A stretch of DNA of 40,910 bases, taken from assembly GCA_903895695.1 (NCBI GenBank), contig CAITUY010000109.1:1-40910 (forward strand). The letters are read 5' to 3'. The first letter of the stretch is position 1. The number at the start of each line of letters is the position of its first letter. Position numbers and translations under genes: made by a program. The notes below the pieces were generated by a model. The model had not been told where the DNA came from. It saw nothing but the letters and a program-made list of their open reading frames with translations, and ran no database searches. Positions 3,699 through 40,910 of the stretch are shown here, one piece after another. This stretch comes from an uncultured bacterium (GTDB lineage Bacteria > Verrucomicrobiota > Kiritimatiellia > CAIKKV01 > CAITUY01).

Positions 3699-4060
3699 AG
3701 GACACCGCCTGTGGTCATGGCCAGGTAGGATCCGGCCAGCGTGTCGCGTTGCAGCAGCCGTTCGGTCTGTATGCCGAAGGCGGCGGAACGGGGCGTGACC
3801 AGCGCCACACCGATGCCGATCCCGACGCCGATCACTGCCGCGGCCGCGGCGGCCCAGGCTGGCTGCAGGAGGGTCAGCCGCAGGAACTCGATCACAGTCA
3901 ATCGGGGCGGGGTGGCCACGGCTTCGCGCCGGATCCGGTCCCACACGCCCTGGTCAAATCCAGGCGACGGTTCAACCACATGCCAGCCCTTGAGAGCCGC
4001 ACTCAGGCGGGCATCGTCGGCTCGTGTCGCATCGTCCGGTCGTTCTGTAACTTGCGTCAT
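3695..4060 (-). CDS. hypothetical single-pass membrane protein (anti-sigma-like)
   Basis: MTQVTERPDD... followed by a TM segment AAAAAAVIGVGIGIGVALV. Translationally coupled to the downstream LTXXQ gene. An alternative start lies at 4102. Confidence 0.4.
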   Translation of the reverse strand: MTQVTERPDDATRADDARLSAALKGWHVVEPSPGFDQGVWDRIRREAVATPPRLTVIEFLRLTLLQPAWAAAAAAVIGVGIGIGVALVTPRSAAFGIQTERLLQRDTLAGSYLAMTTGGVL

Positions 4061-4157
4061 TTCCGGTTTCCCTATAGGCCTCTCTGCAAGGTGTAACGCC
4101 ATGGATCGGGAAAACCCTTGCAGGGAGTTCGACGAACCGAGTGTGCGCTCGCAGTGA

Positions 4158-4192
4158 TTGACATTTGTACTAACAGATAGCACATTGCAGGC
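4158..4192 (+). promoter_or_regulatory. candidate sigma70-like promoter (TTGACA -35) in an AT-rich patch upstream of the HTH gene
   Basis: Perfect TTGACA at 4158-4163 in a locally AT-rich stretch about 30 nt upstream of ATG 4193. The -10 element is poor (cacatt/tagcac). Confidence 0.25.
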
Positions 4193-4564
4193 ATGCGACT
4201 CTCCAGCGTCAAAGTGAAGCAACGCTGCACTCAACGGCGACTAAGGCTCACCGATGTCCTGCGGCAGGCGGGCGTCAGCCGGACCGCCTACTACTCGCTC
4301 GCCCGCAAGGAATCCGTGTTGCCCAAGTCTATCCTCCGCATCGCGCGCCAACTTGAGGTCGATCCCGCAGAGTTGCTGGAAAACGAGGCCGCGCAAATCG
4401 CGCACATTCGCCGCTTGCAGGCCGAGGCGGGAGCGCTCGCGAGGCGGCATCCAGACTGTGACCGCGATGTCATGTTCAGAACACTGCTGAACCTGGAACA
4501 ACCGCCGATCGAGCGGTTGAGGAGGGCTTTGATCCGTGCACGCCGACCTGCCACTCACCGATAA
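4193..4564 (+). CDS. XRE-like helix-turn-helix DNA-binding protein
   Basis: 123 aa. HTH segment LTDVLRQAGVSRTAYYSLARKE. 29-nt overlap with the downstream nucleotidyltransferase gene. Confidence 0.5.
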   Translation: MRLSSVKVKQRCTQRRLRLTDVLRQAGVSRTAYYSLARKESVLPKSILRIARQLEVDPAELLENEAAQIAHIRRLQAEAGALARRHPDCDRDVMFRTLLNLEQPPIERLRRALIRARRPATHR

Positions 4565-5015
4565 AGAATTGGCGTTCTTGAAAGAACTCGTCCGTCAGAA
4601 AGTGGCGTTCATGGTCGTGGGCCTTTCGGCTGCCGCCCTGCAGGGCGCTCCGATGGTGACCCAGGATGTGGACCTGTGGTTCCGGGACACCGACGACCCC
4701 GGCATCCGAAAGGCGCTCAGGAAGGTGGGAGGCATGTGGGTGCCGTCCATCGACCTGAATCCGCCCATGTTTGCCGGCGAACACGTGCAGTGTTTTGACA
4801 TCGTGCTAACCGTTCACGGGATCGGATCGTTTGAGGACGAACTGGCGAACACGGTGGACGTGCGCTTGGGGACATTCTCCGTCAAGGCTCTGCAACTGGA
4901 CCGCATCATTGCCAGCAAGACGCACTTGAATCGGGAGAAGGACCGGATGGTCCTCCCGGCGCTTAGGTCAGCGGCCAAGGCACTGCAATCGCGCGGCGGG
5001 CGGGTGACCCATTGA
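4536..5015 (+). CDS. minimal nucleotidyltransferase (Pol-beta superfamily fold) protein
   Basis: GTG start with GGAGGG RBS 9 nt upstream. NTase motif hGS...DhDh: VVGLSAAALQGAPMVTQDVDLWF. Confidence 0.5.
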   Translation: MHADLPLTDKELAFLKELVRQKVAFMVVGLSAAALQGAPMVTQDVDLWFRDTDDPGIRKALRKVGGMWVPSIDLNPPMFAGEHVQCFDIVLTVHGIGSFEDELANTVDVRLGTFSVKALQLDRIIASKTHLNREKDRMVLPALRSAAKALQSRGGRVTH

Positions 5016-5072
5016 AAGCGTCGTAGCCGCCGCCGTCAGGCGGTGGTCATGGCACAGGATGGGAATGAAGGA

Positions 5073-5147
5073 AGGATTTGTTCACGCGGAGACGCGGAGG
5101 ACGCGGAGGAGAGAATCAAGAAATGCATTTTGCTCCGCGCCTCCGCG
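5073..5147. repeat. inverted repeat / hairpin with tandem gacgcggag units
   Basis: cacgcggagacgcggaggacgcggaggag ... ctccgcgcctccgcgtga are reverse complements. Lies between the NTase gene and the mod fragment. Confidence 0.4.
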
Positions 5148-5265
5148 TGACTCTCCGAGGATTTGGGTCGCCAGTGAAACCTTGACGCGAGGCGGCAGGG
5201 CGGGCAGCATCCCCAACGACCCTCACGCAACTGCTCACAAATTGTGATCGGTTCGCAGGAACCCT

Positions 5266-5709
5266 ATGCCCACACTTGACTGGATCGGGAAGCAGGCGGT
5301 GGTGAACCATCACCACACCGTGCCGTTTCATTTGCTGAAGGACGTGCCGGACCTGTCGGTCGGCGATCCCGGCGCCGGGAACCTGATCGTGCAGGGCGAC
5401 AACCTGCTCGCGCTCAAAGCCCTGCTCCCGTACTACGCCGGCCAGGTGAAGTGCATCTACATCGATCCGCCCTACAACACCGGCAACGAGGGGTGGGTCT
5501 ACAACGACAACGTCAACAGCCCTCTCATCCGCCAGTGGCTCGGCAAGACCGTGGGCAAGGAGGCCGACGACCTGTCCCGCCACGATAAGTGGCTGTGCAT
5601 GATGTATCCGAAGTTGGCGCTGCTGCGCGAATTCCTGCTGGGCGCGGAACGCCTGCGCGCCGAGCGCATCACCTTCCGTCAGACGCCGTACGAGGTGAAG
5701 ATAACATGA
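5266..5709 (+). pseudogene. truncated N-terminal fragment of a type III (beta-class) N6-adenine DNA methyltransferase Mod
   Basis: LIVQGDNLLALKALLP...CIYIDPPYNTGNEGWVYNDN (DPPY motif IV near the N-terminus). Ends at 147 aa, whereas Mod proteins are about 600 aa. Confidence 0.6.
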
Positions 5710-5739
5710 CGTTTGACGTTTACTATCAAGAAGTTGCAG

Positions 5740-5768
5740 ACTTGAAGTCACAATTTGTGACTTCAAGT
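5740..5768. repeat. perfect 13-bp inverted repeat (acttgaagtcaca att tgtgacttcaagt)
   Basis: Direct reading of the sequence. Located at the junction between the mod fragment and the DUF1016 pseudogene. Confidence 0.6.
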
Positions 5769-5777
5769 TGAGGGCAA

Positions 5778-6781
5778 ATGAGCATGAAGCAGATGACCGT
5801 CAAACCGAAGGCGGCGAAGGGAATGAGGGTGGCGCCGGTTGCTTATGCCAGGTTGTTGAAGGACGTTAAGGCGCGCATTCGTGCGGCGCAGGTTAGAGCC
5901 ACGTTTTAAGCCAACCGCGAGTTAATCCTCCTTTACTGGGATATTGGTCGCACGATCGCGGCACGGCAGGAACAGGAAGGGTGGGGTGCCGCAGTGATCC
6001 CCCGCCTGGCACGCGACATCCGCAACGAGTTGCCGGAAGTGAAGGGGTATTCGGAACGTAATATCGGTTACATGATCCGGTTTGCTCACGAATACGGACC
6101 ACCCCCAATTTTGCAACGACTCGTTGCAAAATTGACGGGCATTCAACAGTTGGTCGTGCATCTACCGTGGGGGCAGAACATCATCCTGATGGAGAAGGTC
6201 AAGGACCACGCTGTCCGGTATTGGTACATGCGGGCCTCGTTACAGCAAGGTTGGAGTCGTGATGTCCTGGCCCTGATGATCGAAGGCCAGGCGCACGAGC
6301 GGCAAGGCAACGCCGTGACCAACTTCGTGGAACGGTTACCGCCCCAGCAATCCGATATGGCGCAACAGGCACTCAAAGACCCCTATATTTTCGACTTTCT
6401 CACGTTGGATGAACCGTTCCACGAGCGTGAACTCGAAACCGCGCTCGTGCGGCATCTTGAAAAGTTCTTGATCGAACTCGGACAGGGGTTCGCCTTTGTC
6501 GGGCGTCAGGTTCATGTCGATGTGGGCGATGAAGACTTCTACACTCCAGCGATAATCCGAGCGTGGGGCTGATTCTGTGCCAGGAGGAAAAGCGTTTGGT
6601 TGCCGAATACGCGCTCAAAGGCATGCGCAAGGCGATCGGCGTTTCTCGGTATCAACTTACCCGCGCCTTGCCGAAGGAGTTCCAATCCAGTCTCCCAAGT
6701 GTCGCAGACATCGAGGAGGAGTTTTCCGAAGCACCGCGTCGAACCCCAACGAAGGCGACTCGTGCCCGGAGGCGCCCATGA
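5778..6781 (+). pseudogene. DUF1016/YhcG-family PD-(D/E)xK nuclease pseudogene
   Basis: N-terminal ...NRELILLYWDIGRTIA and C-terminal DPYIFDFLTL...GQGFAFVGRQVHVDVGDEDFY ...GLILCQEEKRLVAEYALKGMRKAIGVSRYQL match DUF1016. It carries an in-frame TAA at 5907-5909, an internal deletion of roughly 40 aa after GDEDFY, and a frameshift near 6563-6572. Confidence 0.6.
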
Positions 6782-7098
6782 TCCAACTCAAAGATTATCA
6801 ACACCGGGTTTTGGACTCGCTGCGGGAGTTCCTGTCCCAGTGCGCCCGCACGCACGATCCCGAGAAGGCTTTTGAGGCGCTCACGACCAAAGTCTATGGG
6901 CGCTCGCTGGACTACGTGCAGATGCGCGACCCGCGTTTTGCGCATATGCCCTACGTCTGCGTGCGCGTGCCGACCGGCGGCGGCAAGACCTTGCTGGCGC
7001 GATCTGGGAGGCGCGCAGCTCCGGTCGCCGCCTGTTCGTCATGCCTTCGGGGTTGGACTGGAGCGCCATTACAGCGAAGATACGAAGTGGACGAGTGA
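6778..7098 (+). pseudogene. truncated N-terminal fragment of a type III restriction enzyme Res (SF2 helicase)
   Basis: MIQLKDYQHRVLDSLREF...YVCVRVPTGGGKTLLA (helicase motif I). Homology is lost about 75 aa in, then a stop follows. The start overlaps the DUF1016 stop (ATGA). Confidence 0.55.
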
Positions 7099-7104
7099 TT
7101 CCTC

Positions 7105-30239: not shown

Positions 30240-31214
30240 GTGCGGCAGGGATGCCGCTGCCATACCTTTCTGGCGCCGCTATCAGCCATCGTATTGCTGG
30301 CCGCTGCCAGCGCCAGCGCCTTTGAATCGGTCGAGGCCCTCACGGGATTTTTCGACACGAATGGCATTCCATATGACCGGACCAACGTGGTCGCGGCCGC
30401 CCTCGGCGGCGCGCTGCAGGCGGTTGATTCCGGCGCGCGTTTCGTGTCTGCGGAGGCCGCCCGGGCGCTCGTAGCCCGCGGCGAGCCGGTGCTCGGCCCG
30501 TCTGGCTTCACCAATTTGACGACGCTCGATGCGGTGGAGTTGTGGCCGGAAGGGCTTGCGTATCTCAAGGTCAACGCCCTCGGGGCGGGCAGCGGCGCGG
30601 AGGTCCTCGCGCACCTTCGATGCCTCAGTGACCGGACCGGTGTGATTCTCGATTTGCGCGGGGCGGATGGCGCGGACCTGGAGGCCGTGGCGGCGCTGGC
30701 GAGCCCGTTCCGGTGCCAGGGCGAGCCGCTGTTTACGGTAAGTGACCTGCGCGGCCGCGAACTGGCGGCCTACACGGCCACCTCGGCGGTGCCATGCGAA
30801 GTGCCCCTGATGGTGCTGACCGACCGGGGCACGCGCGGCAGCGCCGAGGCCCTGGCCTCCTGTTTCCGCGGCGTGCCGGGCGTGATGACGATCGGCATGC
30901 CGACGTGCGGCGAGACGCAACTGCGCGAGTTACTGCCGTTGCCCGACGCCTCCTTCCTATACATCGCGACCCGCCGGCTGGTTCCGGCCGGCCGGCCGGC
31001 TTACGACCGGACCGGCGTGCAGCCCGATGTCGAGGTGACTGTTTTCGATCCCGGGGCCTTTGCCAACGGCGATTCGCCGATCCGCGGCCGCACGGCCAGC
31101 GCCAAGACCGTGCGCGACCATGAACTCATGCTGCGGGTGGGCCACGATGTCGTGCTGCGCCGCGCCGCGGATATCCTCCTGGGCCTCAAGGCGCTGGACC
31201 ATGTCGGACTCTGA
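30240..31214 (+). CDS. S41-family (C-terminal processing) peptidase-like protein
   Basis: Signal-like N-terminus (FLAPLSAIVLLAAASASA). S41 core GVILDLRGADGADLEAVAALAS...LMVLTDRGTRGSAEALASCF. Start is a putative GTG. The ORF begins further upstream and overlaps purE. Confidence 0.6.
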   Translation: MRQGCRCHTFLAPLSAIVLLAAASASAFESVEALTGFFDTNGIPYDRTNVVAAALGGALQAVDSGARFVSAEAARALVARGEPVLGPSGFTNLTTLDAVELWPEGLAYLKVNALGAGSGAEVLAHLRCLSDRTGVILDLRGADGADLEAVAALASPFRCQGEPLFTVSDLRGRELAAYTATSAVPCEVPLMVLTDRGTRGSAEALASCFRGVPGVMTIGMPTCGETQLRELLPLPDASFLYIATRRLVPAGRPAYDRTGVQPDVEVTVFDPGAFANGDSPIRGRTASAKTVRDHELMLRVGHDVVLRRAADILLGLKALDHVGL

Positions 31215-32265
31215 CCCCAGCCTGATGAGAGTCGACGGTCGCAAGCCGGGCCGGCAGGCCGTGGCGCAGGCCGCCCGCCTCTTGCGCCAGGGTTCCCTGG
31301 TGGTTCTCCCCACCGACACCGTCTACGGCGTGGCCGCCGATCCAACCGTGCCCGGCGCCCTGGAGCGTCTCTACGAGGCCAAAACCCGCGACCGCGGGAA
31401 ACCCATTCCCTTTCTTGTCGCCGATATCGCCGAGGTGGCCCGGGCCGGCGCCGCGATGGGCTGGCGGGCCCGGCGCCTTGCCCGGCGCTACTGGCCCGGG
31501 CCGCTTACGCTGGTGTTGCGAACGGGAGAGGCGTACGAGGGTTTTCGCGTTCCCAACCACCCTGTGACCCTGGCCGTGCTGCGGGCGGTCGGCGGCATCC
31601 TGCGCGTCACGAGCGCCAACCGCAGCGGCGAGGCGGCGGCCTGCGATGCGCCGGCGGCGGCGGCCGCGCTCGCGGGCCGCGTCCGCTTGGTGCTCGATGC
31701 CGGGCCGGCGCCCCTGGGCGCGGAGAGCACGGTCGTGCAGGAGGATGGCGAAACCCTGCGCATCCTTCGCCAGGGCGCCCTGCCGGCGGAGGCCGTCCGG
31801 TCGAGGCCGCTCGTTGTCATGGTGTGTACCGGCAACATCTGCCGCAGTCCCATGGCCAAGTACCTGCTGCGCCAGTGGCTCGGGCCCGACAGCCCGTGGG
31901 AGGTCGAGTCGGCCGGCGTTGGGGCCGTGGGCGGCCAGCCGGCCAGCGAGGAAGCCGTGATCGCGCTGGCGGAAAAAGGGATCGATGGCTCGCGGCATCG
32001 AAGCCGGGCCCTGGATGAGGGGCTGGTTGACGCTGCGGACTTCATTGTGGTAATGACGGACGATCATCGGCGCATCGTCCAGCAGCGATTTCCCGGGGCG
32101 CGCGACAGGGTCTATCTGCTGAAGTCGTTCGGCCCCGCCGAATCTGACGAGGATATTGCGGACCCGATCGGCCAGTCGGTGGACGTTTATCGCGATTGCC
32201 GCGACGAGATGAATGCCGCCATGCCCGACTTGGTGTTGCACCTGCACGAGTGGTTGGCCGGTTGA
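31201..32265 (+). CDS. tsaC: L-threonylcarbamoyladenylate synthase (TsaC/YrdC domain) fused to low-molecular-weight protein tyrosine phosphatase
   Basis: YrdC motifs ([27 protein letters not shown]). C-terminal LMW-PTP P-loop [12 protein letters not shown] and DPIG..DVYRD. Confidence 0.8.
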
Positions 32266-32291
32266 AGCCGGCGAGGAAGGACCCAGGACTC

Positions 32292-33974
32292 ATGAAGATT
32301 GCCATTGGCGCCGACCACGGCGGCTACGAGTTGAAAGAATCGGTCAAGCGCGCCTTCGAGCAGCGCGGCATCGCCATCGAGGATGTCGGCTGCCACGACG
32401 CCACATCCGTCGACTATCCCGACTATGCCCGCGCGGTGGCGGGCCTGGTGGCGGAAGGCACGGTCGAGCAGGGCGTGCTGATCTGCCGGACCGGCCTGGG
32501 CATGAGCATGGCGGCCAACAAATTTCCGCGTGTTCGCGCGGCACTGTGCATGACTCCCCGCATGGCGGTCGCGGCCCGTTCCCACAACAACGCCAACATC
32601 CTTGTGCTCGGGGGGGACATTGAGTCGCCAAGCCAGGCGGCCGAGATCGTGGGCGCCTGGCTGGAAACGCCGTTCGTGGGCGAAGCCCGTCACCAACGGC
32701 GCGTGGACAAGGTCGACGAGATGGGCGGCACGGCGGTCGAGATGGGGGCTGTCGCCGAGGTCGACCGCGAGATCTACGATGCGATCAAGCACGAGGAGCA
32801 GCGCGAGGGCTCGACGATCGACTTGATCGCTTCCGAGAATTATGCCAGCCGGGCCGTGCGCGAAGCGCAAGGCTCGCTGATGACCAACAAGTATGCCGAG
32901 GGCTATCCCGGCAAGCGTTACTACAACGGGTGCGAATTCGTGGACGTGGCGGAGCGGCTGGCGATCGAGCGGGCCAAGGCGATCTTCGGCGCCGAGCACG
33001 CCAACGTGCAGCCGCACTGCGGGTCGTCGGCCAACATGGCGGTGTATTTCGCCGTGCTGCAGCCGGGCGACACGATCGTGGCCATGAGCCTGGCCCACGG
33101 CGGACACCTCACGCACGGGCACAAGGTCAACTTCTCCGGCCGCTTTTTCAACATCGTGCCGTACGGCGTGAACAAGCAGACCGAGCGCATCGACTACGAC
33201 GAGATCGCGGCGCTGGCGCGCCAGAACAAGCCAAAGTTGATTGTCGCCGGGGCGAGCGCCTATCCGCGTGTCATCGAATTCCAGCGGCTGCGCGCGATTG
33301 CCGACGAGACGGGCGCGATGCTGATGGTCGACATGGCCCACATCGCCGGGCTGATCGCCGCGGGCGTGCACCCCAGTCCGGTGCCGTATGCCGACTTCGT
33401 GACCACCACGACCCACAAGACCCTGCGCGGACCGCGCAGCGGGTTGATCCTGTGCCGGGCGAAGTATGCCAAGGATATCGACCGCACCGTATTCCCGGGG
33501 CTGCAGGGCGGGCCGCTCATGCACACCATCGCGGCCAAAGCGGTGTGCTTCAAGGAAGCCATGGAACCCGGCTTCAAGGCCTATCAGCAGCAGGTCGTCA
33601 AGAACGCCCAGACGCTGGCGGCGTTTCTGGCCTCGCACGGCATGCGCATCGTGTCCGGCGGCACGGACAATCACCTGATGCTGGTTGATCTCACGCCGCT
33701 CAAGACGACGGGCAAGGATGCCGCCACGGCGCTGGAGAAGGCGGGCATTATCGTCAACAAGAACGCCATTCCGTTTGACGCGCAGCCCCCGGCCGTGACG
33801 TCGGGCATTCGCATCGGCACGCCGGCGGCGACCACGCGCGGCATGGCCGAAGCCGAGATGCAGCAGATTGGGACGTGGATCGTCGATGCGGTCAAGCACC
33901 AGGCCGATGACGCCCACTTGGCGGGCATCCGTGCCCAAGTTGTTGCGTTCGCCGCGAAGTTTCCGATCCCCTGA
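32292..33974 (+). CDS. glyA: ribose-5-phosphate isomerase B fused in frame to serine hydroxymethyltransferase
   Basis: N-terminal RpiB ([16 protein letters not shown]...[18 protein letters not shown]). It runs with no stop into GlyA ([41 protein letters not shown]...THKTLRGPR). GAGGAAGG RBS. Confidence 0.8.
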
Positions 33975-34917: not shown

Positions 34918-35886
34918 ATGAATTTGATGGGCATCGACATTGGCGGCACCAAGACGGCCGCCTGCATCGGCAATGATCGTGGGGAGATCCTGGCGTCCAA
35001 GCGCATGCCTTCGGCCAGCGATACGATCGAGCACTATCGCAAGCAGATGCTCGAGCTTTGTTACGAGACGATTGCCAAGGCGGGATTGAAGCCGGAGCAG
35101 ATCGACGCCATCGGCATCTCGGCGCCGGGTCCGCTCGACTGCAAGCGCGGGGTGTTGATTGCACCGCCGAACAACGTGGGTTGGCGCGACGTCCCGATCG
35201 TGGACATGGTGCAGAAGTCGTTCAAGGCCCCGGTGTTCTGCAACAACGACGCCAATGCCTGCGCCCTGGCGGAGATGCTGTTCGGCGAGTATCGCGGGGT
35301 GAAGAACTTGGTGTACCTGACGTTCAGCACGGGCATGGGAGGCGGCATCATCGCCAACGGCGAACTGATCCAGGGCGCCACCGACACGGGCGGCGAGGTG
35401 GGGCACCACACGTTGGACCCCAACGGACCCCTGTGCGGATGCGGCCAGCGCGGCTGCTGGGAAGCCTATGTGGGCGGCCGCAACGTGGCTGAGCAACTCA
35501 AGGCCAAGATTCGCGACGGCAACGTCACGACCACGATGGTTGAAAAGGCGGGCGGGATCGACAAGATCGACGTGCGGGCCTTCGAGCAGGCGGCGCGCGA
35601 GGGCGACCGCTTTGCGATGGCGGAGTGGGACATGTTTACGGACCGCGTTGCGCAGGGTATCGGCAATCTGATCATGATCCTCAACCCCGACGTCATCGTG
35701 CTCGGCACCATTGCCATCCACACCGGCGATTTCGTCATGGGCCCCATTCGCGACAAACTGCCCAAGTACACTTGGGAGTGGCCGCTCAAAGTCTGCAAGG
35801 TAGTGCCCAGTTCGCTGGGCGGCAAGATCGGCGACCTGGCGGCGCTCGCCGTGGCCGTCACTGGCCTCAAACACGCAGGTCAGTAG
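34918..35886 (+). CDS. ROK-family sugar kinase (glucokinase / N-acetylglucosamine kinase-like)
   Basis: MNLMGIDIGGTKTAA (ATP-binding). ROK zinc motif CGCGQRGCWEAY. GGAG RBS. Confidence 0.8.
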   Translation: MNLMGIDIGGTKTAACIGNDRGEILASKRMPSASDTIEHYRKQMLELCYETIAKAGLKPEQIDAIGISAPGPLDCKRGVLIAPPNNVGWRDVPIVDMVQKSFKAPVFCNNDANACALAEMLFGEYRGVKNLVYLTFSTGMGGGIIANGELIQGATDTGGEVGHHTLDPNGPLCGCGQRGCWEAYVGGRNVAEQLKAKIRDGNVTTTMVEKAGGIDKIDVRAFEQAAREGDRFAMAEWDMFTDRVAQGIGNLIMILNPDVIVLGTIAIHTGDFVMGPIRDKLPKYTWEWPLKVCKVVPSSLGGKIGDLAALAVAVTGLKHAGQ

Positions 35887-36408
35887 CGGCGGAGGAAGTG
35901 GAGGGCGCCGCTCTGGCGGCGCCGTGACTGGAGCGTGCCCCTCCTCCGTCGCGAGTTTGGAATGGATTAGGCGTGTGCCGCTGGGATAGAATTCCACCGT
36001 GATCAAGCCATGCGTCCATATCGCCAAGTCCTTTCGCGACGCTGATGAATGGGACATAAGGCAGGCGATTTCCATGCCGCTGGCCAGACGGTTAGCACTG
36101 GCGGAGGAGTTAAAGCGCCGAGCCTACCCTGGCGTTTGAAAAGGACCACGGGAATGCCGCCGAGGGAAACCGGTGCGTCGCGTTTCGCCAGCGACATAAG
36201 GCAGTTTCTGGAATGCCTGACGACGCAAGGTGTTCGCGATATTTGAACCGTGGATTCTAGTTTCTAGGTTTGACCCTTGGGGCCGCACATGGCGGTTCCT
36301 CCTGATTGGTGTGCTGACTGACCAATCATTCGGCGGCGAGGAAGGGGTGTCCTGCCGGGCGGACCCGCATGCCGTGGTGGTGCAGCAGCCGGGGCTACGC
36401 CGTACCGT

Positions 36409-36879
36409 TCAGCGTGGGGTTGGGGGCATTCTCTGTTGTTCGATTTGGGTGCACACATCAAACAGCCATTCGACTCCCGTGTCGACAACCTTCAAGTCAT
36501 TTGGCCGGATTTCCAATTCTGATGGCGACTTGGGGTGGGTTATCCGGTCCCTTATCTGGTATGCCTGAAGCAATGCGCACCAGCCTTTCTCCTTCTTGTT
36601 GACTCGGTACGTCGAGCACAGCGCTTTCGCAATGCCGTTGAGTGCAGTCTCAATGCTGTCCTTGGTCGACTGTCTGCTGAGCAACTGCCCCGCGTCACCG
36701 GCTGCCGCCTGATAATGAAGAGCATACAAGAATGCTTCTACGTAAGCAAACTGGGCGCGGATGAGGCAGCGCCGCTGAACCTGGCCATCTGGCGCGGCAT
36801 TGGCGGCTTCAACGCAGTATGCGACATCCGTGGAGTTCAAGAGTCGTGCGGCTGTGAGCGCTGTGTTGTTGTACTTCAT
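36409..36879 (-). CDS. hypothetical small protein with candidate HEPN R-x4-H motif
   Basis: 156 aa. Strong GGAGGAG RBS. R110-DRIT-H115 fits the HEPN Rx4-6H motif in a predicted helical protein. Lower-GC island. Confidence 0.45.
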   Translation of the reverse strand: MKYNNTALTAARLLNSTDVAYCVEAANAAPDGQVQRRCLIRAQFAYVEAFLYALHYQAAAGDAGQLLSRQSTKDSIETALNGIAKALCSTYRVNKKEKGWCALLQAYQIRDRITHPKSPSELEIRPNDLKVVDTGVEWLFDVCTQIEQQRMPPTPR

Positions 36880-37051
36880 CTGTCTGTCTCCTCCATTCTG
36901 TTTCTGTCACCGAACTATACTATAAGACAACACGACCTTTCGGGGACTAGTTGCCTACGCGAGCAGCCTCTTGCCGCCCGAGCAATACCCGAGACCTCAC
37001 GAGATTCTGGCCCAAGCCACTATCGGCGTCAGTCGGGGCTAACCTAATCAG

Positions 37052-38260
37052 TCACTTACTGCTGCTGTTCCCATGCTTGTTTGTTTCATCGGTGCTGGCT
37101 TGCGGAGGAATGGATGATGACGCTCTGCCGCGGTCGTCTGTGAAAGGTGATGTCATTGGCAGGCCAGAGAGGGCGGCTAACATTGCGTCACGGGTGTCAC
37201 TCAATCCAGCAAGGTCGTCGTACCACTTCTGCTGTTGGGCCGACCGTGCCATAAACGCTTTAAACAGGTCTGACTCTTGTGCGAAGCGCCGAGCAAGTGC
37301 CTGATAGTTGGCATCGGTCTCCAGAATCTTATCAGTGACCCGTTCGATCTGTTCGGCACCATAGAGAAGCGGAAAACCCACTGCGTAGACCTTCTTGACC
37401 TCATCAATCGTCTTCTTCGCCACCTTGGCATTCAGATGTTCTTTCGCATAGCTGATGAAGAGCTCTGACGAGTACATTTGGAGCGAGGTGTTTGCCGTTT
37501 GGCGCAGTTCCTCTCTCAATTCCGGGCGACATCCGATAGTCTTGCCACGGACTTTCCACCACCAGTCATCTTTCCCGTCATTCGTTACAAAGATGATCCC
37601 CTTCTTGTCACCCGCTGCCTTTTGGAGTATTTCCGTCCATACCACCAAATCGCCGTAGACTTGGTTGCCTTCCTTCTTGTTGGGACCCTTTGTGTCACAG
37701 TAACCCGGCGGAATATCATTGCCGTATCGCTCTTTGCCATCGACATAGAGTTTCTTCAAGTCCTGAGCGGAGAGACCGGCTCCTACCTTGCCAGACAGGA
37801 TTGCTTCGATTTGCGGTAGAATACCGTCTGCTTTGAGGTGATCGGGATGTGACTCCATCTGCTTCTTGATGTCTTCGTCAATCTGATCCAGCGTATCGGT
37901 GAGCCTCTTCTCTATCGCCTTTTGGTCGAGAATTGGGTGGGTACGAAAGGTGAACAGCCTCCTGAGTTCATCATCCGCATGCTTACGAAGCACCGCAACC
38001 ATCTTGCGAGCTTGATCAAGCAAAGTCACCTGGTCTGATATGACCGACGGCCGATTCCGGAAGAACTCCAGTGCGACTTGGCGTGGAATCCACAACTGGC
38101 CTCTGACCTTACGAATGACCTCCAGGCATTCCCCTCGTGTCTTCTCTGTGTAGCGGTAGAGATCAAGCAAGACATTCGTATCGAGCACAATAATACCGTC
38201 TTCCCAGAGTTTTGCGATTTCGGCTTCTGGCAAGGGCGTGTAGCTTTCAAATTCTTTCAC
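37052..38260 (-). CDS. PIN-like nuclease domain (DUF4935-type) protein with helical C-terminal domain
   Basis: N-terminal acidic-residue pattern of a PIN fold: IIVLDTNVLLDLY, IPRQVALEF, YGDLVVWTEI, IIFVTNDGKDDWWW. Lower GC and A/T-ending codons unlike neighbouring genes. Confidence 0.55.
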   Translation of the reverse strand: MKEFESYTPLPEAEIAKLWEDGIIVLDTNVLLDLYRYTEKTRGECLEVIRKVRGQLWIPRQVALEFFRNRPSVISDQVTLLDQARKMVAVLRKHADDELRRLFTFRTHPILDQKAIEKRLTDTLDQIDEDIKKQMESHPDHLKADGILPQIEAILSGKVGAGLSAQDLKKLYVDGKERYGNDIPPGYCDTKGPNKKEGNQVYGDLVVWTEILQKAAGDKKGIIFVTNDGKDDWWWKVRGKTIGCRPELREELRQTANTSLQMYSSELFISYAKEHLNAKVAKKTIDEVKKVYAVGFPLLYGAEQIERVTDKILETDANYQALARRFAQESDLFKAFMARSAQQQKWYDDLAGLSDTRDAMLAALSGLPMTSPFTDDRGRASSSIPPQASTDETNKHGNSSSK

Positions 38261-38496
38261 GGTTTTGGCACCTCAACACCAACGGCTATTAGTGGGGCAA
38301 GATAGTCTTCGACGTGAACGGAATCAATGGTGCATTTCACCATTTACGCCATTAGCGGCTACGAGGTATGGTGAGGCTGTGCCCTCAGAAGGGGGAGAGG
38401 GGATTGGCCGAGGCCGATGGACTGAAGGCGGTTGGAATCGTGGCGACCGGGACCCGTGGCCGGATGGACAACCAGGCGGGTCAGAAAGGGCAACGA

Positions 38497-40425
38497 ATGC
38501 AAAATACACCAGAAGAAGAACTCCTCGCTTGCCATGACAACGTCAGCCCAACCCTCAACAACGTTGTCGCCACCATCCGATCAACGACCGTTCCAATCGA
38601 TGCCCCCTATGATGTCGCTCAAGCTGCCGTTACCGCCGCCCTAGCAACTCCGCTCCGATCAACCACTGTCCCAATCGATGCCCTTTATGCCGCCGCCCAA
38701 GCGGCCCTTACCGCCGCCCTGGCCGCTCCAAGAGCTTCCTTAGCCAGTGCTTACGCCGCGTTCGCCGCCCTAGAAGTCGACCACGCCGTCCGTGACGTTG
38801 TCAACGAAGCCAAAGCTACCGCCGCAAAGTGCGCCGACGCAGAATGCGCCGACGCCAAAGCGGAGGCCCGCGCCGAGGCCCGCGACGCAGCCTATGAGGC
38901 CGTTGCCGACTTCTACGACCCGAGCGACCCAACCTACGCCGCAACCCTCGCCGAACTGGACGATCGTTACGACCCGGGCAACGCCGCAGAATATGCCGAC
39001 CAAGTCGCGAGAGACGAGTACTTGAACCGATCCCCCGCCGCAGCAACGAACGCGGAACGTCGTCTTCATCGCCGTACCAGCGCCGCCAGTGCCACCCACG
39101 CTGCTGCCGAAGAAACCTATGCTGCCGTCCAAACTTCCATTTCCGCTGCCCGCACCGCCCTAAGCGCGGCCCGCGCCGCCCGCGCCACCGAAAGTGTCGC
39201 CCGCGCCGCAGCCCACATTGCCGCAAGTGCAGCCAGTGATGCCCCAGCCGCCCACCGCGCCCACCAAGCCAGCTTTTATGACGACCAAGACGCCAGATAC
39301 GATGTCAACTATAGTACTGCCCGCGCCGCCGTGGTCGCCGCCCGTGCTGCCGTCCAAACCGCCACCGGTGCAGGCAGTGACGCCGCAACCATTGCCGCCC
39401 TTAATGTAACCGTCAGCGCCGCCGCCGCCGTCTCTTACGCCGCCTACAGAACCGCCTACAAAGCCGCGGAGACCAACTCCCGTGCCGAACGAACAGCCCG
39501 CGCCGCCTACGCCGTCGTTGCCGCCGCCGCCAGTGCCGCCCTAGACTCTGTCGCCGATACTGCCTGCGCCACCGCCGAATGCGCTCTCGTTGCCGCCGCA
39601 CAGGCCGTGAAGGTCGCCTCCACAGAAACCGCCGTCGCCGTCGCCTGTACCCGCCGCGTCTCCTGTGCCACCCGAGACGCAGCCTGTGAGGACTGTATGT
39701 ACTGCACTGCCGGCGAAACCGCGAACTCGCCGGCCGTTGTTGCAGACCGTGCCGTCTCCGAAGCCGCTAGTTCCGCCGCCCTAGTTGTCGCTTGTGACGC
39801 CACCAGTGCCGCCTACGCCGAGTACCACGCCGCCTGTACCGACCTACGATCCGCTTGTGCCAACCCAATGACCGCCTTAACAACGAATGACGACATCACA
39901 AATCCAAACATCCGCGCCGACTACCGCGCCGACTATACAGGAGCCAGTGCCGCCTTCGAATACGCCAACGGATTCGTCGCCGCCACCCACATCATCGCAA
40001 ATGAAAATTGTGATGCCGTCCAAACCGCCCTGCTTGCCGCCCAAGCCAACCTAAACGCCGAGTGCGTCGCCACCAATGCCGCCCACCACAGATGCAGTGA
40101 CGCCGCTGCCGATGTCCGTGCCGCCTACGCCGCCGCCGAAACAGCGCTTTCCGTCGCCGCCCAAGCCGTCAAGGTCGCCACAGCCGAAATCGATTTCGCC
40201 TTTGCCTGCCCCACCGACAACGGTGTCGCCGCCGATCGCGCTGTCTGTACCGACGCCCATGCCACCTTCGAAGCGGCTGACGCTACACTTGCCAGCGCTA
40301 TTGCCGATGCCCATGCCGCTCAAGACGCAACCAAGGAAGCCAATGCCGCTCAAGACGCAAGGAAAAGGGCCGCGCTCGCTTCACCGGATATCACTTGCGA
40401 CAGTGAGGATGGGCTTCCCTTCTGA
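38497..40425 (+). CDS. extremely alanine-rich repetitive Cys-containing protein of unknown function
   Basis: ORF is uninterrupted from 38368 to 40425 (685 aa); an in-frame alternative start lies at 38464. Roughly one third Ala. Internal tandem 26-aa repeat (RSTTVPIDA[P/L]Y...), duplicated AAQAVKVA[S/T] blocks, about 20 Cys. Codon usage (cta, tta, aga, agt, caa) differs from flanking host genes. Confidence 0.45.
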   Translation: MQNTPEEELLACHDNVSPTLNNVVATIRSTTVPIDAPYDVAQAAVTAALATPLRSTTVPIDALYAAAQAALTAALAAPRASLASAYAAFAALEVDHAVRDVVNEAKATAAKCADAECADAKAEARAEARDAAYEAVADFYDPSDPTYAATLAELDDRYDPGNAAEYADQVARDEYLNRSPAAATNAERRLHRRTSAASATHAAAEETYAAVQTSISAARTALSAARAARATESVARAAAHIAASAASDAPAAHRAHQASFYDDQDARYDVNYSTARAAVVAARAAVQTATGAGSDAATIAALNVTVSAAAAVSYAAYRTAYKAAETNSRAERTARAAYAVVAAAASAALDSVADTACATAECALVAAAQAVKVASTETAVAVACTRRVSCATRDAACEDCMYCTAGETANSPAVVADRAVSEAASSAALVVACDATSAAYAEYHAACTDLRSACANPMTALTTNDDITNPNIRADYRADYTGASAAFEYANGFVAATHIIANENCDAVQTALLAAQANLNAECVATNAAHHRCSDAAADVRAAYAAAETALSVAAQAVKVATAEIDFAFACPTDNGVAADRAVCTDAHATFEAADATLASAIADAHAAQDATKEANAAQDARKRAALASPDITCDSEDGLPF

Positions 40426-40484
40426 CACCCTAGCAGAACCTGTTGACGGAACGACTCCCACGGCTCTTCGATAAGTTGAGTGCG

Positions 40485-40910
40485 ATGACACGCATTTACG
40501 AGCATTGGCGACAACTGCGAGGCGACAAACGCCTCTCGCCTTGGCGACGGGCGCGACTGGCGGCCGCGATGGAAACCTTTAAGACGGTTCCTGACCTTCT
40601 GCGTTTGGCGCGATTCTGGCGGGATTCGGGCTCCAGCCAAGCGGAAGAGAAAGTGCGGCTGTGCCTGAAGATGGCCGAGACGATGGCAACGACGAGGGAC
40701 GACTGGGGCGAGATTGCCGTGCAATACAGCAAGCACCTTTGGATTTTCGGACGGCATCTCGGAAATGAGGCACTGCGGTGCATGCGCAGAGCGGAGGCGG
40801 TTGCGGAGACCTCCGTAGATTGGGCGGGGTTCGCCATCGATTGGTATCGCCTTTCGGGCACGGACACACGGCGGCAACTACTCCGGTGTCTTGGAACGGC
40901 CTTGGCAAAG
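40485..40910 (+). CDS. hypothetical protein (3' partial, runs off window)
   Basis: Open frame from ATG 40485 to the window end (142 codons) with protein-like composition (MTRIYEHWRQLRGDKRL...). Not in the supplied ORF track, presumably because it has no stop. Confidence 0.3.
   Translation, partial: MTRIYEHWRQLRGDKRLSPWRRARLAAAMETFKTVPDLLRLARFWRDSGSSQAEEKVRLCLKMAETMATTRDDWGEIAVQYSKHLWIFGRHLGNEALRCMRRAEAVAETSVDWAGFAIDWYRLSGTDTRRQLLRCLGTALAK

Follow-up and report, generated by a model that had tools for sequence, protein, structure and literature searches.

A compositionally foreign chromosomal segment encoding putative PIN_8 and HEPN nucleases in an uncultured Kiritimatiellia bacterium

We analysed a stretch of 40,910 nucleotides, referred to below as the window, from contig CAITUY010000109.1 of an uncultured Kiritimatiellia bacterium (assembly GCA_903895695.1). 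At least 4.6 kb of this window, located downstream of a ROK-family kinase gene and extending to the window end (36257–40910), is compositionally foreign and was probably acquired horizontally. It carries genes on the reverse strand for a 156-residue protein with a HEPN fold (36409–36879) and a 402-residue protein of the Pfam family PIN_8 (37052–38260), and on the forward strand a long alanine-rich open reading frame (ORF; 38368–40425) and an ORF that is cut by the end of the window (40443–40910). The first three had been described in an original prediction made from the sequence alone, and all three are present. On balance, and with moderate confidence, we favour the view that the segment is an island in a housekeeping, high-GC chromosomal region, and that its cargo consists of two independent, free-standing conflict-type nucleases, an orphan alanine-rich gene and the cut ORF.

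Composition of the segment

The GC content in consecutive 1-kb windows from 36.0 to 38.5 kb is 0.57, 0.568, 0.543, 0.538, 0.523, 0.509 and 0.528. These values lie 3.1 to 5.4 standard deviations below the background of 0.649 ± 0.026 found in 1-kb windows up to 35.5 kb, and the sole further dip in the window is at about 5.75 kb (0.558). The GC content at third codon positions (GC3) has a background of 0.815 ± 0.037 (n = 30 genes); it is 0.81 in the ROK gene, 0.65 in the HEPN gene, 0.60 in the PIN_8 gene, 0.65 in the alanine-rich ORF and 0.68 in the 3'-partial ORF. The segment thus has the deviating composition of a genomic island (GC 3.1–5.4 standard deviations low; GC3 of 0.60–0.68 against 0.82). 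The drop in GC content between about 36.25 and 38.3 kb and the atypical codon usage through the gene at 38.4–40.4 kb, both pointed out earlier, were confirmed by these profiles. The island had been drawn at 36250–40480; the atypical segment is real, and it is the right limit that has to be revised. Since the GC3 of the 3'-partial ORF (40443–40910, forward strand; no family match) is 0.68, the atypical composition probably continues past 40480 to the window end at 40910, which places the right end of the segment beyond the window. The position of the left end should be taken as provisional.

The PIN_8 protein

The 402-residue protein matches the Pfam profile PIN_8 (PF18476) over its entire length (profile positions 1–227 of 227), with an E-value of 6.8e-63 and a score of 213.1 bits at a cut-off of 26.1. 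The nuclease domain comprises residues 1–290 (37391–38260, reverse strand). PIN_12/DUF4935, the family named in the original prediction, is a weaker, related match (39 bits), so that the assignment to the PIN nucleases stands and the family becomes PIN_8. Over 130 homologues with identities of 30–54% were retrieved, and each spans only the first ~72% of the protein. Among 34 aligned homologues, the acidic residues D27, E65, D204 and D232 are invariant, as are the motifs PPGY and DWW, which bears out the expected conservation of the PIN motif residues. In the AlphaFold model, residues 1–290 have a predicted local distance difference test score (pLDDT) above 90 and form a PIN core into which a long helical segment (residues 60–137) is inserted, and the fold agrees with that of VapC-type PIN structures. 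The variable tail (residues 296–402 with the stop codon, 37052–37375, reverse strand) does not align across the family and has a pLDDT of 37–57. It is therefore probably a non-conserved, disordered tail and not the large helical C-terminal domain that had been proposed; the helical element lies in the insert instead. The alignment and the model show that the protein has a complete VapC-group PIN domain with an intact acidic site; it is a putative active nuclease.

In the classification of Matelska et al. 2017 (PMC5499597), PIN_8 is a VapC-group family of unknown function with 4–5 active-site residues that is marked as probably active, and the related DUF4935 family is mostly monocistronic. As the family has no known function, membership says little about the role of the protein. 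Scans against PADLOC, NCBIfam and PHROG gave a single match, to phrog_9788, which is itself of unknown function, and PDB sequence searches with the profiles of the PIN_8 and HEPN families gave no match. A literature search for PF18476 and PIN_8 retrieved nothing on the biochemistry of the family, the name leading only to papers on plant PIN8.

The HEPN protein

The 156-residue protein is a member of a large, uncatalogued family. It shows the four-helix up-down bundle fold of the HEPN superfamily and carries the R-x4-6-H motif, here as RDRITH at residues 110–115 (36535–36552, reverse strand). In an alignment of 39 diverse family members, R37, W100, R110, H115 and P116 are invariant, and the pattern R[NDH]RxxHP was found in 147 of the 153 top matches to the family, so that the R-x4-H motif reported earlier is both present and conserved. 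Fold and motif identify it as a HEPN-fold protein with an intact catalytic motif, and hence a putative active nuclease.

A word-index search of 5.8 billion proteins returned only two relatives (41–45% identity), in both of which RDRITHPK is invariant. Searching 1.84 billion cluster representatives with a profile of three sequences retrieved 2254 proteins at E < 1e-3, of which 453 had E < 1e-10, mostly of ~200 residues; at 50% identity the family comprises more than 2000 clusters. Sequence searches of the 156-residue protein against Pfam, NCBIfam, PADLOC, PHROG and PDB gave no match, ten of its relatives had no Pfam match either, and no described HEPN family fits. The family is unseen by public model libraries, and because no public model recognises it, current defence-finding pipelines would miss it.

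Independence of the two nuclease families

The association between the two families was examined in 243 loci: 80 genomic HEPN-family loci, each taken with flanks of up to 10 kb, 80 metagenomic loci of PIN_8 (of which 53 extend 600 nt or more downstream) and 83 loci on viral contigs. The genomic HEPN loci came from a genome scan with a motif-selected HEPN alignment. PIN_8 was found within 10 kb of the HEPN family in none of the 80 genomic loci, the HEPN family was found near PIN_8 in none of the 80 metagenomic loci, and none of the 83 viral-contig loci contained both. The closest relatives of each protein agree with this. In the nearest PIN_8 relative (54% identity, L006/L007), unrelated small ORFs come next in place of a HEPN partner, and the second-nearest (P0003) stands alone amid metabolic genes. 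The nearest relatives of the HEPN protein lie after a UvrD-like fragment (L005) and amid small unknown ORFs in a Kiritimatiellia metagenome-assembled genome (MAG; L008), neither with PIN_8. The proposal that the HEPN, PIN and alanine-rich proteins form one defence module is thus not upheld. Screening the three island proteins against PADLOC-DB v2 gave no component model at E ≤ 1, and together with the NCBIfam scans this agrees with the earlier statement that no named defence system can be assigned.

Two loci contain a different HEPN-type protein next to PIN_8. In L147 (5017–5829), a protein with the motif RNTTAH, which by eye resembles TIGR02391/Abi_C, is encoded just upstream of PIN_8, and in L135 a shorter, related ORF lies upstream of PIN_8.

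A HerA–NurA–methylase operon with an exchangeable first gene

Homologues of both nucleases were found at the head of a recurrent four-gene operon, in which the first gene is followed by genes for a HerA-like ATPase (~700–750 residues), a NurA-domain protein (~455 residues) and an N6_N4 DNA methylase (~375 residues). A PIN_8 protein of 346–349 residues heads the operon in L103, L109, L119 (5980–11777) and L128, and in L104 and L143 the operon is interrupted by the contig end. A HEPN-family member of 185 residues heads it in an Anaerolineae MAG (L044; 9953–15238) and in Candidatus Leptofilum (L052). The operons of L044 and L119 share 53% identity in HerA, 42% in NurA and 47% in the methylase. 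The mutually exclusive use of the first slot of an orthologous operon argues that the PIN_8 and HEPN families are functionally interchangeable modules of one system type, in which both would be putative effectors and not partners of each other. The shared slot thereby offers comparative evidence that both families may serve as effector modules.

The four-gene operon is not among the PADLOC v2 models, and we found no paper describing a defence system of HerA, NurA and a methyltransferase. Among the established antiphage systems are HerA–effector pairs such as SIR2-HerA and DUF4297-HerA (PMC11291478, PMC11472057, PMC11514289). The exchangeable first gene suggests a restriction-modification-like HerA system, of which we found no description. 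Within the window, no gene for HerA, NurA or a methylase is present between 34 and 40.9 kb, where the PIN_8 gene is followed downstream by the HEPN gene and then by the ROK gene. Taken alone, the island is an ordinary case of foreign DNA with predicted nucleases of the already known PIN and HEPN classes; the HEPN family that lacks a model and the HerA–NurA–methylase operon with its swappable head are the parts most worth pursuing.

Mobility and genomic neighbourhoods of the families

Both families are carried by mobile or variable DNA, and neither has a fixed partner in the loci examined. PIN_8 was found on 72 plasmids, in 175 confirmed stretches of IMG/VR, in one cultured Clostridium phage and in phrog_9788. 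Around 80 viral PIN_8 loci, the 150 nearest neighbouring ORFs (within ~620 nt) included 19 phage integrases and 5 host mutS genes, which suggests that PIN_8 often lies near a prophage end, a common site of accessory genes. The suggestion that the island represents mobile-element cargo fits this occurrence on plasmids and in viral sequences, often beside a prophage integrase. The metagenomic neighbours of PIN_8 include HerA, OLD/AbiEii-like ATPases, DNA methylases, SMODS, RhuM and integrases, in addition to housekeeping genes, and the commonest arrangement in the sampled loci is a free-standing PIN_8 gene. On a Ruegeria plasmid, the gene is located inside an ATPase/DEAD-helicase operon.

In one further locus (L088:420–5783), a PIN_8 homologue follows genes for a Toprim-like protein, a GajB-like UvrD helicase and an unknown protein of 461 residues. 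This homologue gives the longest alignment to the window protein (residues 4–382, 40% identity), and its tail carries about four copies of the tandem repeat AIDALGYRS[DN]IENAIKNATLGAGMSKA. The Toprim-like protein resembles the effector part of the PADLOC RT-Toprim models.

The HEPN family was seldom met on plasmids or on viral contigs. Away from the Sphingomonadales site described below, the genes found near it include those for transposases, Fic, PIN_3 toxins and HerA as well as housekeeping genes. On a Salinivibrio replicon, it is flanked by a DUF2971 gene and an NYN-domain gene, and ParDE and HipA systems are encoded no more than 5 kb away. In about 26 Sphingomonadales genomes (among L009–L083), the family occupies a single syntenic site beside yebC, ruvC and ruvA.

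Proposed function and points against it

By analogy with its superfamily, the PIN_8 protein would be a metal-dependent endonuclease that acts through its four acidic residues, and the HEPN protein would be a metal-independent RNase with its R/H site in a dimer cleft. The only ORFs in the intergenic regions flanking either nuclease encode 22–61 residues and have no ribosome-binding context, and none is a credible antitoxin candidate. Because no antitoxin gene is present, we infer that each nuclease would be kept quiet by intrinsic or transcriptional control. Infection or stress would then trigger each nuclease, and the resulting cleavage of nucleic acid would lead to growth arrest or to exclusion of the invader. 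The adjacency of the PIN_8 and HEPN genes would reflect the clustering of such genes in an island, and not a two-component machine.

Several points weigh against this interpretation. A defence role of either family is argued by analogy and from genomic context, and some PIN_8 homologues are found amid ordinary metabolic genes. The one conserved yebC/ruvC/ruvA site across the Sphingomonadales looks like vertical inheritance, which is unusual for a defence gene, and this suggests that the HEPN family is partly vertical in that order and perhaps has a non-defence role there. A free-standing nuclease without an inhibitor needs a control mechanism, and none is visible in the sequence. Finally, the case for a mobile-element origin of the island is wholly compositional, because an integrase, a tRNA gene and flanking repeats are absent from the window and the right border is missing.

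Alternative explanations

We regard it as unlikely that both nucleases do ordinary work in the cell, for instance in RNA processing or turnover or in stress-induced RNA decay, and that they were transferred without any part in conflicts with phages or plasmids. Such roles would fit the HEPN family's conserved chromosomal site in the ~26 Sphingomonadales species, the housekeeping neighbours that are common around both families (tRNA synthetases, aconitase), and the fact that no PADLOC model matches either of them. However, PIN_8 is strongly tied to plasmids and to integrase-proximal prophage ends, and both families have been recruited to the HerA–NurA–methylase operon, where the precedent of HerA–effector pairs as antiphage systems applies. 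The distribution of the families is also patchy, and the HEPN clade of the window is very rare, as the two relatives in the word index illustrate.

We consider it quite unlikely that the island is what is left of a larger element in decay, such as the end of a prophage or a multi-gene system that lost its ATPase and methylase, and that its genes are relics on their way to loss. In the 370 nt between the ROK gene and the island, the reading frames are broken by stops and no gene is intact. The window contains no integrase or att-like repeats, and PIN_8 elsewhere typically adjoins a prophage integrase. A methylase fragment and a truncated YhcG/DUF1016 nuclease are encoded in a second low-GC patch at 4–7 kb, and decayed foreign DNA therefore exists in this genome. 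Against decay of the island itself, its three ORFs are long and intact, all catalytic residues are kept, and the PIN_8 domain spans the whole Pfam model. Free-standing PIN_8 genes are the commonest arrangement in the sampled loci, and the rest of the element on the right may just be located past the window.

It appears improbable that PIN_8 and HEPN, perhaps with the alanine-rich protein, constitute one lineage-restricted abortive-infection or toxin module, in which one component might sense or restrain another. The two nuclease genes are co-oriented, the 172 nt that separate them contain no terminator-like site, and mutual control is conceivable since no antitoxin is visible for either. HEPN-family genes occasionally occur near other members of the PIN superfamily (PIN_3 in three loci, NYN in the Salinivibrio replicon), and the RNTTAH-type HEPN protein precedes PIN_8 in L147. 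The three-gene arrangement also recurs on contigs from several samples; these contigs, however, are 100% identical to the window and therefore represent one population and one observation, not independent evolutionary observations. The absence of both families together from all 243 loci and from the surroundings of their nearest relatives speaks against a module, as does the operon in which the families replace each other and do not pair. The HEPN gene, moreover, has its own ribosome-binding site (GGAGGAG), and no homologue of the alanine-rich protein was found in a search that was weak for this low-complexity query. We give very little credence to an elaborated form, a new lineage-restricted two-nuclease abortive-infection module with the alanine-rich protein as possible sensor or inhibitor, whose effectors elsewhere plug singly into the undescribed HerA–NurA–methylase system. 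Two independent, free-standing nucleases carried as island cargo thus remain our preferred explanation.

Borders of the island and other features of the window

The left flank of the island is of host type. The ROK-family kinase gene (34918–35886, forward strand; Pfam ROK, 2.9e-63) has the GC3 of the background, and a 322-residue form of the protein is on record on five contigs. A gene-less stretch of 370 nt (35887–36256) separates it from the island; in six-frame translation, fragments such as ...FASDIRQFLECLTTQGVRDI, ending in a stop, look by eye like pieces of small genes and may be remnants of such genes. Contig L003 (JGI 3300022555, 2 samples) is identical to window positions 36257–37152 and diverges exactly at 36256|36257, which is probably the left edge of the island. 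On the ROK side of this contig, 31 nt (L003:897–927, corresponding to window positions 36226–36257) are unrelated to the window there and match nowhere else in it, and the divergence point may possibly be an alternative junction or an artefact of assembly at a contig end. In another public metagenome contig (L002:3536–3558), the 23 terminal nt are unlike the window and similar to an Illumina adapter (TCCCTACACGACGC.TTCCGATCT), and were taken as an assembly artefact. An empty-site allele was sought on contigs encoding the identical ROK protein, and every contig that reaches far enough has the island. Scans of the window for tRNA genes and against Rfam gave no match, and neither an integrase nor flanking or att-like direct repeats above chance were found around the island within the window.

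The alanine-rich ORF, which had been described as encoding a giant protein, is confirmed as an ORF of 685 codons that opens at 38368 and has an alanine content of 32%. Its product is an orphan acidic repeat protein (D+E 12.5%, K+R 7%), and 154 of its 208 alanine codons are GCC. The start was placed at TTG 38404 (giving 38404–40425, forward strand) from the spacing of a gene call on another contig; a partial gene is called there on two other contigs. The distances between the degenerate repeats of the ORF are without exception multiples of 3, which is what a coding sequence should show. The protein has no match in Pfam, PADLOC, NCBIfam or PHROG. A word-index search returned no homologue; this search was weak, as the index was flooded owing to the low complexity of the query and did not give back even the protein itself. 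Looking the protein up exactly from six candidate starts also found nothing, and the four GTG or TTG starts among these were possibly translated as V or L and not as M.

Small palindromes had been reported to flank the island, and both are present. The first (36303–36328; TGATTGGT-N10-ACCAATCA, 8-bp arms) lies downstream of the HEPN gene and is not followed by a T-run. The second (38326–38344; AATGGTG-CATTT-CACCATT, 7-bp arms) lies in the divergent intergenic region between the PIN_8 gene and the alanine-rich gene and could be an operator. Such hairpins show no clear enrichment for their size: 8 with 7-bp arms were counted, where Markov shuffles give 3.6 ± 2.4, and a count of 8 was reached in 7 of the 100 shuffles. 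Terminator-like and promoter-like sites around the island likewise show no excess over chance.

The remainder of the window consists of chromosomal housekeeping genes, among them purD, a Sua5–low-molecular-weight phosphatase fusion, RpiB–SHMT, a PAS histidine kinase and ROK. In the host chromosome, two single ORFs look like fused genes: one (31060–32265) joins Sua5/YrdC to a low-molecular-weight phosphotyrosine phosphatase, and the other (32196–33974) joins RpiB (residues 35–173) to serine hydroxymethyltransferase (SHMT; residues 187–562). The second low-GC patch of the window (4000–7100, GC down to 0.56) contains a weak DNA-methylase fragment (5266–5709) and a truncated YhcG/DUF1016 PDDEXK nuclease gene (5994–6572, GC3 0.66), and looks like another decayed insertion of foreign or restriction-modification type.

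Comparison with known systems

The 402-residue protein agrees with Pfam PIN_8 (PF18476) in its full-length match far above the gathering score, its four acidic residues, its VapC-type fold and its solitary gene. A lineage-specific tail of 107 residues, which is probably disordered, sets it apart from the family. With the toxins of the VapBC type II toxin–antitoxin systems it shares the PIN fold and the VapC-type acidic catalytic site. Unlike VapC, it has no upstream or overlapping antitoxin gene, its upstream neighbour being the divergent alanine-rich gene, and it is three times as large, having a helical insert of 78 residues and a PPGY region.

The HEPN protein is distinct from the known HEPN toxins and effectors (HEPN-MNT, the C-terminal HEPN domain of AbiA, Csm6/Csx1, sacsin HEPN), having no sequence match in Pfam, NCBIfam or PDB and possessing its own motifs RRxxxRxxFAxIEG, GW and RxRxTHPK. 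It also has no MNT partner: no ORF for a minimal nucleotidyltransferase (MNT) lies beside the window gene, and none is among the recurrent neighbour families in 52 loci of the family.

In relation to SIR2-HerA and DUF4297-HerA, the window differs by lacking HerA, NurA and the methylase, and the operon found elsewhere differs by having four genes, including those for NurA and the methylase. What is shared with these systems is the position of the nuclease genes: homologues of both window nucleases lie directly upstream of a HerA ATPase in a conserved operon, the place that the effectors take in SIR2-HerA and DUF4297-HerA.

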